Shown: one piece after another, positions 1,118-17,695 of the stretch
How positions within the stretch are numbered: position 1 is the first letter of the stretch
How the letters are laid out: every line of letters starts with the position of its first letter
Assembly (NCBI GenBank): GCA_963792965.1
Contig: CAWBYW010000025.1
Location: 1-64,000 of the forward strand
DNA from: an uncultured delta proteobacterium
GTDB taxonomy: Bacteria > Desulfobacterota > Zymogenia > Zymogenales > Zymogenaceae
DNA length: 64,000 nt
Reading direction: 5' to 3'
Made by a program: the position numbers and the translations under genes
Notes under the pieces: model-generated
Database searches by the model: none
What the model was told of the DNA's origin: nothing
Seen by the model: only the letters and a program-made list of their open reading frames with translations

Positions 1118-1185
1118 ATAGGGCACCCACAAAGAAAGGATCCACGCCTTTGCGCAAGTCCCTGATCATGCTGGTAGCGGGGACA
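1118..1185 (-). repeat. Repeat A copy 1: tRNA-fMet 3' end plus degenerate terminator (att-like)
   Basis: ATAGGGCACCCACAAAGAAAGGATCCACGCCTTTGCGCAAGTCCCTGA...CTGGTAGCGGGGACA matches 17562-17630. Confidence 0.85.
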
Positions 1186-1364
1186 TGTTAAGATCTATAT
1201 GATCTTTACCTTGACAACCACTCAGAAGTATAATAATTAATAGGCAAATACTATAAGATTTCTGTTAAAAGAGCGCAAATCGATATGACTCAGGATGATT
1301 ATTCGGTCGATTGAGCTTTCATTCTATTTCATCGCGGCTGTGCGTATCCATTAGGGGCCACTGT

Positions 1365-1949
1365 ATGTCCGAAGAAAAAAAGGTAACAGACATTTCAATT
1401 CGCGCGGCGTATGATGCTCTATCGGAGATCGTCGGGAAAAACGGAAGAAATATGGTGCTCAAAAAAGCCGGCCTTGAAAGAATTATTGATGCCCCTCCGC
1501 CGTACGATTTCACGGTCTCCTTTACAATACCGGAACAGGCGCGTCTCTATCTTGCCGTCGTCGATTATTTCGGCACGTTGGGCGCCCAGGGGATTCTCCG
1601 ACAGATCGGGTACAAGGCCGCCGCGCTCGCCTCCGAGAAGGGAATTGCCGACCATCTCAGAGATGTACCGGAGCCGGAGCAATTATATAAACTCATAGAC
1701 CTTTTTCATTTACTTGTCGGCAAGGGGAAGGCCGAAGAGGTTGAAACGGGGATCTATGCTCTTAACGTCTTTGACTGCATCCACTGCAGCGGAGTGAAGA
1801 GCAGGAAGCAGTTCTGTAGCCATTATGCGGGCGCGCTGCAGGCATTAGTCGATGGCCTCAAGGGAAAGAAACTATATTCGGTGGTGGAAGAGGAGTGTTT
1901 CGCAACGGGAGGGAAAACCTGCCTCTTCGTAGTGCGCAAAGTATCGTAG
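1365..1949 (+). CDS. V4R (4-vinyl reductase) domain protein
   Basis: DCIHC...FCSHYAGALQ...VVEEECFATGGKTCLF is the V4R Cys pattern. Start placed at ATG 1365. Confidence 0.75.
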   Translation: MSEEKKVTDISIRAAYDALSEIVGKNGRNMVLKKAGLERIIDAPPPYDFTVSFTIPEQARLYLAVVDYFGTLGAQGILRQIGYKAAALASEKGIADHLRDVPEPEQLYKLIDLFHLLVGKGKAEEVETGIYALNVFDCIHCSGVKSRKQFCSHYAGALQALVDGLKGKKLYSVVEEECFATGGKTCLFVVRKVS

Positions 1950-2084
1950 GATTTCGTTGGACGGTGCCCTCAACCGGCCCTGTCCGTGCTTTTCGTGTCA
2001 CCTGCCGCATCTTCATGCCACTTTCTTGTCACGTTACGACACCTGAAAGCCTTTGCAGGATCCACTACATGATTTGGCTGAAAA

Positions 2085-3026
2085 CTAGACCATTTCACCA
2101 GCAGCAATTTGATGCAAGCTCTTGATGTCGCGCAACGGTGGCGCGCCAAACAGGCGGTTGTACTCGCGGCTGAATTGGGATGGGCTTTCATAGCCGACCC
2201 GAAACGCCGCGGTTGTCGCGTCCAGACGCTCGGTGAGCATCAACCGTCGCGCCTCGTTCAAGCGCAGCCATTTTTGGTACTGCAATGGACTCATGGCCGT
2301 CAACACGCGGAAATGGTGGTGGAAAGTCGATGTGCTCATATTGACTTGACTGGCGAGGTCGTCGATACGCAACGGCCGCGTGAAGTTACCCTTCAGCCAA
2401 TCGATTGCCCGGGCAATCTGTTGACTCTGGCTTCCCGCCGAAGCCATCTTGCGCAGACGCGCACCTTGATCGCCCACAAGCAAACGGTAGAAAATTTCCC
2501 GCTGGATGATCGGCGCAAGGATCGGAATATCCTTCGGTTCAGCAAGCAAGTCGATCAGCCGTTGAAAGGCGGTGAGCAGCGGCAACGTGACCTCGCCGGT
2601 CGCCATTCCACGGTCTGATTGCTGCGCACTCGGCGGGGGAAGATTGCTGTCCGTCATCAGCTGTGAAATCTCACGCCGATCAAGTTTCAGCATGAGCCCC
2701 AGGCAGGGCTTTCCCCGGCTCGCTTTGATAATCTGAACGACCGTGGGTAGATCCACGGACGTTATCAGATAATGGTGTGCGTCATACACATACGTGTCGT
2801 CTCCGAGCAACACTCGTTTGGCCCCTTGTGCCATCAGGCAAACACTCGCTTCGTGTATGGCGGTCTTCGGCTGGGTCGGTTCGTCCCACCGATAGAGTGA
2901 CAGGCCCGGGATCGCGGTCATGAGCTTATCGGCTTTATCGGTCCATCGGGCAATGCTCTTTCCCAAAGCTTCGAGTGCAACTTCCATGCTGTTATCCTCA
3001 AACCCCTGATTGACACCCTTACGCAC
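2085..3026 (-). CDS. AraC family transcriptional regulator (AraC_N + HTH)
   Basis: MSTSTFHHHFRVLTAMSPLQYQKWLRLNEARRLM and VGYESPSQFSREY motifs. Divergent from the oxidoreductase cluster. Confidence 0.95.
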   Translation of the reverse strand: MRKGVNQGFEDNSMEVALEALGKSIARWTDKADKLMTAIPGLSLYRWDEPTQPKTAIHEASVCLMAQGAKRVLLGDDTYVYDAHHYLITSVDLPTVVQIIKASRGKPCLGLMLKLDRREISQLMTDSNLPPPSAQQSDRGMATGEVTLPLLTAFQRLIDLLAEPKDIPILAPIIQREIFYRLLVGDQGARLRKMASAGSQSQQIARAIDWLKGNFTRPLRIDDLASQVNMSTSTFHHHFRVLTAMSPLQYQKWLRLNEARRLMLTERLDATTAAFRVGYESPSQFSREYNRLFGAPPLRDIKSLHQIAAGEMV

Positions 3027-3233
3027 TAATATCTTCTATCTAATAATACCAGACCCCACTTCGCAACGCAACTCATTTATAGAAGAGCTCGGACGATTAG
3101 GCAAGAAATTAGCAGGATCCGTCTACCTGCCGTTGCGTTTCGGGAGTATAATGTAATCATCAAGAAGGAAGTAAATAGATGCGAGTAAGATCGACGAAGC
3201 AATTCGGTCCTAAACGGGTGAAAGGAGACGACG

Positions 3234-4232
3234 ATGCAAAAGCGTAAATTGGGAAAAAGCGGCCTGGAAGTTTCGGCTCTCGGGCTCGGCTGCATGGGAA
3301 TGAGCTCTGGCTATGGTCCGGCGGCAGACAAGCAAGAGATGATTTCGCTGATTCGCTCAGCCGTCGAACTGGGCGTCACGTTCTTCGATACCGCCGAAGC
3401 TTACGGTCCGTTCACGAACGAAGAACTTTTAGGCGAAGCCCTCGCCCCATTCCGTGAGCAGGTGGTGATCGCCACCAAGTTCGGGTTCAAGTTCCTTCCC
3501 AACGGGCAGCGGGCTGGCCGGGATAGTCTGGATAGTCGACCGGAACACATCAAGGAGGTCGCCGAGGCCTCGCTCAAGCGGCTTAGGGTTGATACCATCG
3601 ATCTATTCTATCAGCACCGTGTTGACCCGGACGTGCCGATCGAAGACGTAGCGGGGGCGGTGAAGGACCTGATTCGGGAAGGTAAGGTTAAGCATTTCGG
3701 CCTTTCCGAAGCAGGAGTGCAGACGATTCGTCGCGCTCACGCCGTCCAGCCGGTCACTGCGGTCCAGAGCGAATACTCGTTGTGGTGGAGAGGCCCTGAA
3801 GCGGAAGTGCTGCCGACCATTGAGGAACTCGGCATCGGGTTCGTTCCATTTAGCCCTCTTGGCGCGGGCTTCCTCACGGGAAAGATCAACGAAAAAACTG
3901 CGTTCGCCAGTTCCGACTTCCGCAATATCGTCCCTCGCTTTACGCAGGAGGCTCGAAAGACAAATCAGGCCTTCGTTAATTTGCTGAGCAGGGTCGCAGA
4001 AGAAAAGAAGGCGACACCCGCTCAAATCGCGCTTGCTTGGCTGCTTGCCCAGAAGCCGTGGATAGTGCCGATTCCGGGTACCCGTAAACTGGAGCGCCTG
4101 GAGGAGAACATCGGAGCAGGTACCGTCGAACTAACGTCCGATGATCTCAGGGAGATCAAGATCGCGGCCTCAAAGATCACCGTGCAAGGGGCTCGGCTCC
4201 CCGAAAACCTGGAGAAAATGACCGGTCGCTGA
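3234..4232 (+). CDS. Aldo/keto reductase
   Basis: [25 protein letters not shown] and [13 protein letters not shown] motifs. Confidence 0.95.
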
Positions 4233-4259
4233 GCGGATGTCATAGCATAGGGAGTTAAG

Positions 4260-16311: not shown

Positions 16312-16385
16312 TGACCTGCCCCCGAGAACTGTACCAGTGTTTAAGTTAGTCCATAGGCGTATGTTTCGTGTCCACCTTCCGAAGG
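16312..16385 (+). repeat. IS-like left end (repeat B)
   Basis: TGACCTGCCCCCGAGAACTGTACCAGTGTTTAAGTTAGTCCATAGGCGTA is nearly identical to 11027-11075. Confidence 0.85.
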
Positions 16386-16671
16386 CTGGGGGGTATAATT
16401 TCAGCTCTCCTCCTCAAATGACCTCAAAGAAAATCCTAAGACCTACCAACTACAAAATCGCCCTCAATTTCCGCCCCATCAATCCCGACTGGTTCTGGAT
16501 GCTCTGGTGTATCTCTTTCGAGGATCCTTAAATCAGCTTTCTGCATGCCTCACACATAGGGATCTATATCCTATCTTATCACAAAAGGAGCACTCCAATC
16601 TTTAGCAGAGTCCATAAATACCATCGCCTGGTTTATACTCATAGATATTCTGTTCTATTCCCTCAGTAACC

Positions 16672-16956
16672 CTAAGTTACGTCTTTTCTTTGTGTACTAA
16701 ATTGCCGGACGGGCCTGTAGACCTTGAAATAGGCGCATATGAACAGCACTGATACTTTTAGATAGACCCTCACGTAGACACAGTTTTTGCCCTTGTTTTC
16801 GCCGCTGGTGATGTAGTTCATACCGTATCTGACGACCTTCAGCTGTTTGGGACAGTCGTTGAAGATGACCTTAGCCGGTTGGACAATCCAGGCACTGGCA
16901 TCGGCCAAAGTAACCATTAAGAAGAGCGTCAAGAGAAGAATCGTGACCTTTTTCAT
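16672..16956 (-). CDS. Small secreted hypothetical protein
   Basis: GGAGGAG RBS and signal peptide MKKVTILLLTLFLMVTLADASA. Confidence 0.55.
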   Translation of the reverse strand: MKKVTILLLTLFLMVTLADASAWIVQPAKVIFNDCPKQLKVVRYGMNYITSGENKGKNCVYVRVYLKVSVLFICAYFKVYRPVRQFSTQRKDVT

Positions 16957-17442
16957 ATTCCCACTCCTCCGGTAAGAAACGTAGAATATCAGACACCTTT
17001 CCATCACTTCTACAGCGCATAGCCCATTCGCTTTCGCTACGAAAGATAACTGAGCGAGTGCGATCTTGCCACATCCCTCTCCCGTCCGATGAATCGGGTA
17101 CACTCCTCGACGCTGGCGGCTCTCCGTGCATCCAAGAAGTTAAACGGGTGGGAATACCTTAGGCATAGCCATATGACCTCTTTCCATTAACGATACTAGT
17201 AGTTACTCTATAGGCGTGTGCTTCGCGTCCACCTCCCCAAGACCCGGGAAGTATGGTTTCGGGAACCGGGGAACGGTAACCAAGAGAACTGTGTAGCCCG
17301 ATGGTTTTATACTCTCTTCGCAACTTCAATGACAAGACTTAGCTTCTAATAGCATATCGAAGCTCTCACTTATGTGCCCACCCTGACCTTGCCCTCCATT
17401 CAGAATATATTCTACCACAAATTCTAACTTTTAAAATGGACT

Positions 17443-17612
17443 CGTTTTCGGAGGTCAGGTCAGTCGAATTATAGGTCATCGACAAAAAAAGGACTTACGC
17501 TTCTGCGTAAGTCCTTGGTTTTACAGAACGAGTACCGTTTTCGGAGGTCAGGTCAGTCGAATTATAGGTCACCCACAAAAAAAGGACTCACGCTTCTAGC
17601 GTGAGTCCTTGA
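17443..17612. repeat. 93-bp-period tandem duplication of IS-like end plus terminator
   Basis: CGTTTTCGGAGGTCAGGTCAGTCGAATTATAGGTCA...AAAAAAAGGACT(T/C)ACGC...GTCCTTG occurs at 17443 and 17536. Confidence 0.9.
17577..17610 (-). terminator. Intrinsic terminator of tRNA-fMet
   Basis: AAGGACTCACGC/GCGTGAGTCCTT stem followed by a T-run on the minus strand. Confidence 0.9.
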
Positions 17613-17618
17613 TTTTTC

Positions 17619-17695
17619 TGGTAGCGGGGATAGGATTCGAACCTATGACCTTCGGGTTATGAGCCCGACGAGCTACCGGACTGCTCCACCCCGCG
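17619..17695 (-). tRNA. tRNA-fMet (CAT), initiator
   Basis: 77 nt: CGCGGGG...CTCATAA...GGTTCGAATCC...CCCCGCTACCA, with a C1:U72 mismatch and three G-C pairs in the anticodon stem. Confidence 0.98.

Follow-up and report, generated by a model that had tools for sequence, protein, structure and literature searches.

Displaced tRNA-fMet 3' ends and terminators mark an integrase-less array of cassettes, probably a serially built tRNA island, in an uncultured member of the Zymogenaceae

We analyzed a 64,000-nucleotide stretch of DNA (the window) from the start of contig CAWBYW010000025.1, part of a 42-contig metagenome-assembled genome (MAG) of an uncultured sediment bacterium of the Zymogenaceae (assembly GCA_963792965.1, called G000 here); coordinates given without a contig name are positions in the window. 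Beside the tRNA-fMet gene lies an array of cargo segments separated by copies of the 3' end of that tRNA and of the terminator that follows it. On balance we favor, with appreciable room for doubt, the explanation that this is an island built by serial site-specific integration at tRNA-fMet, now integrase-less and remodelled between its repeats. The copies have the anatomy of tRNA 3' ends displaced by insertions at a tRNA gene, in keeping with an earlier reading made from the letters of this window (the sequence-only reading), which had proposed that integrations displaced them. The locus pairs an intact tRNA with fragments of it that have been displaced in direct orientation, and its content is lineage-specific and its composition deviant (a GC fraction of 0.41-0.60 in bins of the array, compared with about 0.55-0.65 to its right), all of which belong to the signature of such islands. 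It is a genuine insertion hotspot for mobile DNA, but the kind is known already. What is unusual is the number of stacked units, the long conserved arm of about 170 nt that many of them have in common, the many single-gene cassettes, and the lack of an integrase in all five arrays that we compared.

Using ARAGORN and Rfam for tRNA calls, we placed the live tRNA-Met(CAT) gene at 17619-17695 on the minus strand (Rfam tRNA, 65 bits). As read from its sequence, this tRNA has three G-C pairs adjoining the anticodon loop and an unpaired 1:72 position, which we take to be the marks of an initiator tRNA. Upstream of the gene is a promoter-like site (17709-17737, minus strand) composed of TTGACA, a 17-nt spacer and TATAGT, with TG before the second hexamer; it agrees with the consensus at 11 of 12 positions and, like the promoter-like sites throughout the array, is a consensus match only. 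The tRNA's own downstream module (17563-17618, minus strand) comprises a 13-bp terminator hairpin at 17582-17610 (-21.8 kcal/mol, z -7.6) with a U-run, together with the motif ATAGGTCACC.

The sequence-only reading had reported that the last 12 bases of the tRNA recur together with the terminator at 14923, 12738 (in degenerate form), 9617 and 1172, and all four copies are verified. The motif TGGTAGCGGGG, with at most one mismatch allowed, has six matches in the window against 1.11 expected, a count reached in one of 100 shuffles. Its plus-strand sites are at 1172, 9617, 14923 and 17619 (1172 and 14923 exact, 9617 with one mismatch), and the two remaining matches, at 28987 and 30414 on the minus strand, are unrelated to the array. 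The repeat exceeds this motif, since families of 61-64 nt link positions 1118, 9563, 12684, 14882 and 17578. A pattern for the hairpin gave four matches (two loci, each on both strands) and none in 100 shuffles; when an 86-nt unit was compared with the whole assembly, it matched with E <= 0.006 on this contig only, matches elsewhere having E >= 0.47.

All of the displaced copies lie on the minus strand. Copy 1 (14867-14934, 82.8 bits) consists of a terminator at 14886-14914 (-19.6 kcal/mol, z about -7) and 12 nt of the tRNA 3' end. Copy 2 (12684-12749, 89.1 bits) is degenerate, with a weaker hairpin and a tRNA end that reads TATCAGCGGGG. Copy 3 (9563-9627, 91.6 bits) has its terminator at 9581-9608 and a tRNA 3' end that is short of one G, and in copy 4 (1118-1183, 89.3 bits) the hairpin has decayed to six pairs. 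A further copy of the terminator, without a tRNA end, is found at 17471-17534 (minus strand, 51.4 bits) within a 93-nt tandem duplication (17443-17504 and 17536-17597). At the gathering score, Rfam reports only two tRNAs in the window; at E <= 1 over 9400-17720 it reports the tRNA and two weak, chance-level matches and nothing else. The second tRNA in the window is a tRNA-Sec gene at 41315-41412 (72.9 bits), and the organism probably uses selenocysteine.

The array extends past the window, since an ABC-exporter gene that is cut at the window start continues on another contig of the assembly, C35: a tblastn search places residues 1-128 here (5' part of the gene, 1-1132, minus strand) and residues 120-585 at the end of C35. 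That contig holds four more units, at 106305, 107894, 111803 and 114225, so that the whole array comprises at least nine displaced units over about 27 kb, all in one orientation. The claim that the most distant copy is the most decayed stands within the window, where the hairpin at 1172 is the weakest, but decay does not follow distance monotonically, as good hairpins persist, by reading of the sequences, in two of the four units farther out on C35.

Read on the plus strand, antisense to the tRNA, each unit consists of a left arm, a hairpin, the last 12 nt of the tRNA and a right arm. The left arm is short and contains ATAGGTCAC, often with a TTATCACAC-like stretch. The hairpin has 12-13 bp with a U-run after it on the tRNA strand, and the unit hairpins, as measured for the live module and copy 1, are the strongest terminator-like sites in 18 kb. 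To ask how these units vary, we drew on the 10 genomes of the order, all of which fall in one family. Five of them bear an array: G000 and four genomes of one sister genus (G002, G005, G007 and G009). All five are MAGs, with completeness of 89-93%. For an analysis of covariation we used 36 of 38 units of these five genomes, leaving out two that scored under 30 bits. Across 12 hairpin pairs, standard pairing reaches 96.3% on the tRNA strand (including 49 G-U pairs) and 87.0% on the other strand; five of the 12 pairs have changed on both sides, and none of 500 shuffles reached the observed pairing or covariation score. The pairing on the tRNA strand and the covariation indicate that the hairpins have been kept as RNA terminators acting in the direction of the tRNA, in which most cassette genes run as well. 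Just past several of the terminators, and inside arms, there are promoter-like sites.

The units fall into classes according to the right arm and the junction. In class 1, the largest, the right arm is conserved over about 170 nt; our alignment of this arm holds 12 junctions from the five genomes, two of them in the window (9617 and 14923), and similar arms can be read at 12738, at two further junctions and on one metagenome contig. A class-1 arm presents, in order, a peptide-like stretch, a small hairpin and the end of a palindromic repeat, B. The arm of copy 1 (14935-15073, plus strand) is tail-like as far as 15041, with a promoter-like site at 14962-14991 and the end of the B palindrome at 15036-15073. 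That of copy 3 (9628-9762, plus strand) likewise contains the tail-like stretch, a promoter-like site at 9652-9681 and the B palindrome end at 9722-9762. Copy 2 has a class-1-like tail (12750-12822, plus strand) directly upstream of a beta-barrel gene at 12823-14715, and the right arm of copy 4 (1184-1240, plus strand) has a promoter-like site at 1205-1234 and lies upstream of a V4R-domain gene at 1311-1949. Other junction classes in the relatives retain about 20 nt of the tRNA, about 35 nt, or near-complete decayed copies of it, near-full pseudocopies being present in G007 and G009. Some arms carry the 7-6-7 palindrome GGTAGCG-GGGACA-CGCTACC, which presumably resembles the core site of a tyrosine recombinase, although it is intact in only two of the listed arms. 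A search with an arm pattern found three stretches in two records of the family among genome contigs, one among metagenome contigs and none among viral contigs. The copies had also been said to diverge from the tRNA at one and the same base. That description is only partly right: the apparent break is in part a difference between T-stem alleles, the live tRNA of another genome of the order (G003) having C at this position where G000 has T, and several related arms keep tRNA-like sequence into the T-loop (GGGGACAGGATTCAATC).

In the four sister genomes, a profile of the unit detects further arrays, counted as plus-strand copies beside the same tRNA and the same core flank: eight units in G002, 11 in G005, eight in G007 and five in G009. 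These arrays lie inside contigs of 169 kb-1.04 Mb, and three of the four assemblies have just 5-10 contigs. Among the five remaining genomes of the order, the contig ends 0.7-2.8 kb downstream of the tRNA in four, and G001 has 6.4 kb there, with one weak match. The cassettes of the sister genus mostly hold one to three genes for accessory enzymes, many being a single minus-strand gene between two units. Their products include GT2, GT4 and GT8 glycosyltransferases, methyltransferases, an acyltransferase, metallo-beta-lactamase-fold and beta-lactamase-fold proteins, a GFO/IDH oxidoreductase, tectonin-like and URO-D-like proteins, an ABC exporter and a glycosidase.

Compared for gain, loss and reordering of segments, the locus varies in the four genomes, often at the repeats, which leaves the proposal of insertions at the tRNA unrefuted. 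The core flank shows 95.0% identity between G005 and G007 over 9.3 kb, yet the blocks that their arrays have in common are 82-97% identical, stand in another order and are joined by private blocks in each genome; several of the breakpoints are at units. To the right of one unit whose left flank is shared, three genomes differ: in G002 a class-1 junction leads into 3 kb of cargo; in G005, 35 nt of tRNA precede 4.6 kb between 304-bp direct repeats (97.7% identity); and in G007 a near-full tRNA pseudogene is followed by a gene for a membrane protein and by a fresh tRNA whose terminator is different. Between G000 and the sister arrays, about 3.65 of 17.56 kb aligns, whereas the core flank aligns over about 7.2 of its 9.3 kb. 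The cassettes that they have in common (ABC exporter, V4R, and AraC with aldo/keto reductase) are 77-83% identical, and the core flank about 78%. Because these cassettes are as diverged as the core, they are old rather than recently exchanged; they stand in the same relative order in G000 and G007. The distance of the ABC exporter from the tRNA differs, the gene adjoining the tRNA in G009 but lying 16.5 kb from it in G000 and 21.5 kb from it in G007. The content of the locus turns over quickly between fixed flanks.

The same signature is found at other tRNA genes of G000. Displaced 3' parts with a terminator lie 1-23 kb from tRNA-Leu(TAA), from tRNA-Pro(GGG) (two copies) and from tRNA-Thr(CGT), with junctions near the anticodon loop and no integrase between (C7:162307-166317, C12:26581-31149 and C13:143035-166280). 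Its presence at three other tRNAs points to ordinary accretion and decay of islands, and the tRNA-fMet array is the extreme case of a general habit. In relatives, islands at tRNA-Arg, tRNA-Ala and tRNA-Pro contain a tyrosine integrase gene that converges on the tRNA and stops 60-90 nt short of its 3' end, and a terminator lies in that interval. Elements of this lineage thus bring their own tRNA end and terminator, which explains why the repeat extends past the tRNA.

Recombinase-bearing elements that use tRNA-fMet itself also exist elsewhere, which strengthens the case for insertion directed at this tRNA. Two public viral contigs (L087 and L088, 99.5% alike over 11.3 kb) carry a similar terminator and 57 nt of the 3' part of tRNA-fMet but no whole tRNA. 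The phage terminator matches the units in its stem flanks and 3' tail and differs in the stem center in a compensatory way. A 364-aa tyrosine integrase (L087 6669-7763, minus strand) ends about 220 nt to the right of this phage attP, among terminase, repressor-like, excisionase-like and replication genes. Around the attP (L087 6250-6700, and L088) the core is flanked on either side by short direct repeats, with three copies each of TTGGGTCCCC and GCGGTAAGTT, that look like arm-type sites for integrase binding. The second element is in G003, which belongs to another genus (C36, L044 1194-2840), where a gene for a 548-aa large serine recombinase runs in frame into the tRNA-fMet 3' end, the last 14 residues coming from the antisense of the tRNA 3' part; the contig ends before the far junction. 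The distal junction was not found in G003, where two exact matches to the motif fall in coding regions. A serine-recombinase element stands at tRNA-fMet in this one genome of the 10, and it has no class-1 arm. We considered its recombinase as the class-1 enzyme and set the idea aside, tblastn against the arrays having found its tRNA-encoded end only. Its closest database relatives are two matches of 25-26% identity. As a side observation, G000 C9:41315-43188 contains three stretches like the first 19-34 residues of this recombinase (best, 71% over 34 aa).

We infer the mechanism of integration and the order of events as follows. An incoming element would carry an attP consisting of a copy of the tRNA 3' end and a terminator. 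With a crossover within the tRNA-derived stretch, the element's copy would complete the tRNA and supply its terminator, and the previous 3' end and terminator would be pushed outward, where they would now terminate the last minus-strand gene of the insert. Repeated rounds would give a row of cassettes. The recombinase would have been supplied by transient elements, such as the phage or the serine-recombinase element, or would have been lost. Later remodelling has deleted, duplicated and reordered DNA between modules of 100-300 bp, by homologous or site-specific recombination, and genes and some junctions have decayed.

The arrays and genomes were also searched for recombinases. Run in six frames, PF00589 matched 18 times across the five array-bearing genomes, but never within an array and never on the contig of the window, and no IntI-type recombinase next to an attI was found. 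PF00239 (serine recombinases) had no match in any of the five genomes, and the phage integrase used as a query gave 16 matches in them, none in an array. The observation that the window lacks a recombinase gene is therefore correct and extends to all five arrays. Among 82 array open reading frames (ORFs), the 25 commonest Pfam and PHROG families are all of cargo type and include no recombinase; a singleton could hide among the 65 further families. A 373-aa ORF beside the live tRNA of G007 was considered as a hidden recombinase and rejected, as its sequence reads like that of a hydrophobic protein of membrane type and Pfam gave no match. G000 has two full-length tyrosine recombinases, XerD-like and XerC-like (names given from reading of the sequence, without a family search), and fragments beside other tRNAs on C10. 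Those fragments (C10:79268-79886 and 93875-94110) are tyrosine-integrase C-termini by tRNA-Arg and tRNA-Ala/Leu, one of them followed by a B repeat, and represent ordinary decayed islands.

Several findings weigh against serial integration at the tRNA. No recombinase gene or fragment is present in any of the five arrays, whereas decayed ordinary islands usually leave integrase fragments, as on C10 of G000; since the genomes are MAGs that are 89-93% complete, this absence is weak evidence. At least 12 junctions have one arm of about 170 nt in common, which dedicated non-autonomous cassettes would fit better than random remnants, and no autonomous element with a class-1 arm was found among the genome, viral and metagenome contigs. 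The phage attP has a junction of 57 nt, compared with 12-20 nt in the array, and is without the class-1 arm. Finally, the 304-bp direct repeat in G005 includes about 215 nt of chromosomal flank, so that it looks more like the product of homologous (Campbell-type) recombination than of an integrase.

The strongest alternative is close to what the sequence-only reading had proposed: an active integron-like platform in which non-autonomous cassettes, each of cargo and an attP-like module of about 250 bp, are excised as circles and captured, at the tRNA or at modules already resident, by a recombinase acting in trans (a phage integrase, that of an integrative and conjugative element (ICE), or XerC/D). 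It would account for complete conserved modules at a dozen or more junctions in five genomes, for the many single-gene cassettes of the sister genus, for the same cassettes at differing distances from the tRNA (the ABC exporter in G009, G007 and G000), for the absence of integrase fragments from the arrays and for the core-like palindrome of some arms. What makes us regard it as unlikely is that no cognate recombinase was found, G000 having XerC/D-like enzymes only, and that no circles or excision joints were seen in four metagenome runs, of which contigs only were used and which each held 5-6% of the sampled words; at this coverage the runs are uninformative on mobility. The contigs of these runs cover the window in scattered short pieces, the tRNA and the aldo/keto reductase gene being heavily covered by DNA from other organisms. 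One low-depth piece (3.47) that joins 9609 to 14923 with seven other letters was examined as an excision joint and is better read as a related unit aligned to two copies. In addition, the common cassettes are old and keep their order in G000 and G007, cassettes have their own promoter-like sites, many genes are truncated, and the palindrome is seldom intact. The proposal of a platform served in trans has thus gained no cognate recombinase, circle or excision joint from these searches. By the same token we hold it doubtful that the module of about 250 bp (left arm, terminator, tRNA 3' end and class-1 arm) is the attachment site of recombinase-less, promoter-bearing cassettes moved in trans. If it were, the tRNA gene would be an integron-like capture site of a family of the Desulfobacterota type, and the tail and B would be functional parts of the site.

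A less probable alternative does without any recombinase beyond one or a few founding integrations and derives the arrays by RecA-type recombination, Campbell re-insertion or uptake from relatives. The flank-containing repeat that brackets the 4.6-kb insert in G005 argues for such shuffling, as do the 100-300 bp of 75-95% identity that the modules offer, the internal insertions and deletions at modules away from the tRNA, and the lack of recombinases. It leaves unexplained, however, why unrelated cargo lies between identical arm types, why there are distinct junction classes (12-20 nt, about 35 nt and near-full tRNA) and why other tRNAs show the signature with junctions at the anticodon loop, which are typical of integrases; moreover, modules of 75-90% identity are poor substrates for homologous recombination.

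That the array is an artefact, either of mis-assembled loci or of tandem duplication of the tRNA and terminator in place followed by decay, is very improbable, for although G000 is a 42-contig MAG with the array spanning a contig break, near-full tRNA pseudocopies occur in G007 and G009 and a 93-nt tandem duplication adjoins the tRNA, the same architecture lies within the large contigs of four other assemblies and most copies end sharply at a common non-tRNA arm rather than in a decayed tRNA body, so that mis-assembly, which the sequence-only reading had named as a way to refute its proposal, is largely ruled out.

We examined the two recurring parts of the class-1 arm, the peptide-like tail and B. 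In its plus-strand frame, the tail has the consensus LVAGTRYxQKGKxIEEIAPKPxKFxVNLK. With frame-neutral anchoring of 10 copies, this frame scores 38.5, compared with 23.8-31.8 for the other five. Identities at the three codon positions are 0.50, 0.61 and 0.38, the third position being the least conserved (the anchoring of this count is biased), and the stop is kept as TAA or TGA. In these respects the tail behaves like coding sequence. Minus-strand coding of the arm was rejected because a stop, as read in the sequence, interrupts at least one copy. The tail as the C-terminus of a recombinase was rejected as well, since no long ORF leads into it and its frame relative to the tRNA end varies between copies. 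Pfam gave no match for six tails at E <= 10. A profile of the tail had six matches among 1.84 billion representative proteins: two are ORFs (40 and 65 aa) over further junctions of the same type, and four are long proteins, of which the two that were read are unrelated repeat proteins.

B is a palindrome of about 75 nt with TGACCTGCCCC-type ends, sometimes preceded by an 80-nt C part. A C plus B repeat is located at 11027-11169 (plus strand; -37.1 kcal/mol on that strand, z -7.1), and further C/B copies are at 12154-12297, 16312-16391 and 17392-17463. B was tried and rejected as a private part of the array: it has about 10 further matches in the assembly and is also found in other genera of the family. 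In G000 it occurs on contigs C4, C7, C9, C10, C11, C12, C13 and C35. Outside the array, four of 10 matches are no more than 5 kb from a tRNA gene; another match, on C35, is inside the array. It was not found in the integrase-bearing islands of the relatives or in the phage contigs. B is a genome-wide repeat enriched near tRNA islands.

The repeats had been said to delimit segments of about 2.7, 2.2, 3.1 and 8.4 kb. The 8.4-kb segment is not a single element, having at least one decayed junction inside it. The segment nearest the tRNA (14945-17470) contains a 265-aa glycoside-hydrolase-like fragment (weak GH39 match) and a 143-aa ORF, both on the minus strand. The next (12760-14866) has one plus-strand gene, of 630 aa, with a weak match to an outer-membrane beta-barrel (E 1.9e-05, below the curated cut-off). 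The third (9640-12683) carries, both on the minus strand, a putative RsgA-type GTPase paralogue and a truncated short-chain dehydrogenase; the RsgA-type gene, at 9805-10863, is thus a ribosome-biogenesis GTPase carried as island cargo. The composite segment (1191-9562) encodes V4R, an AraC regulator, an aldo/keto reductase with a partial duplicate, short-chain dehydrogenases, CMD, a flavodoxin-like protein and a HAD hydrolase, and has homologues in the relatives' arrays for 2082-4233 and 1365-2004 only. Alignment of the flanks reveals a decayed junction between its V4R and AraC genes (2030-2075), with about 35 nt of hairpin debris. The corresponding position holds a single unit in G005 and, in G007, a 3.8-kb cassette with a unit on either side; a similarly eroded unit lies to the left of the V4R gene in G007. 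The 8.4-kb segment is thus a fusion of older cassettes. Several genes of this and the following segments are truncated or duplicated. Within the 8.4-kb segment, a 300-nt direct repeat of 79% identity (3890-4189 and 4355-4654) represents a partial copy of the aldo/keto reductase gene right after the full gene.

The array can be set beside several known systems. The cis-mobilizable elements (CIMEs) of streptococcal ICEs are att-bounded elements without recombination or transfer genes that stack in tandem with related elements at one site; known cases adjoin a related ICE, the integrase of which can act on them. The array cassettes are similarly bounded by att-like sequences, with no recombinase among the listed families, but no helper was found in these genomes. 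Myxophage Mx8 reportedly has its attP inside the 3' end of its integrase gene, and the G003 serine-recombinase frame, which crosses the attachment site at tRNA-fMet, is like it in this respect; in contrast, no long ORF carrying the array tail was found here or among the representative proteins searched. The accessible parts of a study of Prochlorococcus tRNA islands (Hackl et al., bioRxiv 10.1101/2020.12.28.424599) describe new arrivals pushing older elements inward, partial tRNAs and degenerated remnants scattered through the islands, and tyrosine or large serine recombinases on integrase-carrying elements that are rare and transient relative to the islands. As those parts describe them, the tycheposon islands resemble the array in their tRNA-anchored growth, partial tRNAs and remnants, whereas here there is no integrase or fragment of one in five arrays, the terminator is part of the repeat, one arm of about 170 nt stands at a dozen or more junctions, the cassettes often hold a single gene, and the lineage is unrelated.

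In the Islander work, again from the accessible parts of the source, a regenerated tRNA and displaced direct 3' fragments mark island ends, and attP classes are T-stem and anticodon-centered (Hudson, Lau and Williams 2015, PMC4383910). The same parts count 125 tandems of two or more islands and four of three or more in 2168 genomes, each tandem member needing an integrase gene and a tRNA fragment (PMC4383910). The array is like these tandems in its regenerated tRNA and displaced fragments and, compared with what is described there, differs in having at least nine fragments and no integrase; the integrase inside the island that an Islander-type definition calls for is thus absent here. Integrons, and the clusters of attC sites lacking an integrase (CALINs), are described in the accessible parts of Cury et al. 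2016 (PMC4889954) and of PMC7923331. On those descriptions, the small cassettes, the recurring structured site, the cargo that varies between relatives and the occasional lack of a nearby integrase are points of likeness. Unlike in those systems, the recurring site here is by direct reading a tRNA 3' end and terminator, no IntI-type integrase was found, and the cassettes appear with their own promoters, in both orientations, and anchored at a tRNA rather than at attI/Pc.

In this poorly known uncultured family, with apparently few mobile elements, accessory genes (for glycosyltransferases, methyltransferases, exporters and oxidoreductases) are concentrated at one tRNA gene, tRNA-fMet. At least 9-11 units are stacked at the locus and none of the five arrays has an integrase, which makes it an extreme case of the accretion of tRNA islands. 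Such arrays also break MAG assemblies: in five of the order's 10 genomes a contig ends inside the array or less than 3 kb downstream of this tRNA, and these breaks at tRNA-fMet suggest strain-level variation or repeats that defeat assembly. The displaced terminators are a source of reusable transcription stops. If the common arm is a working recombination site, these bacteria would possess a cassette system that depends on a borrowed recombinase.

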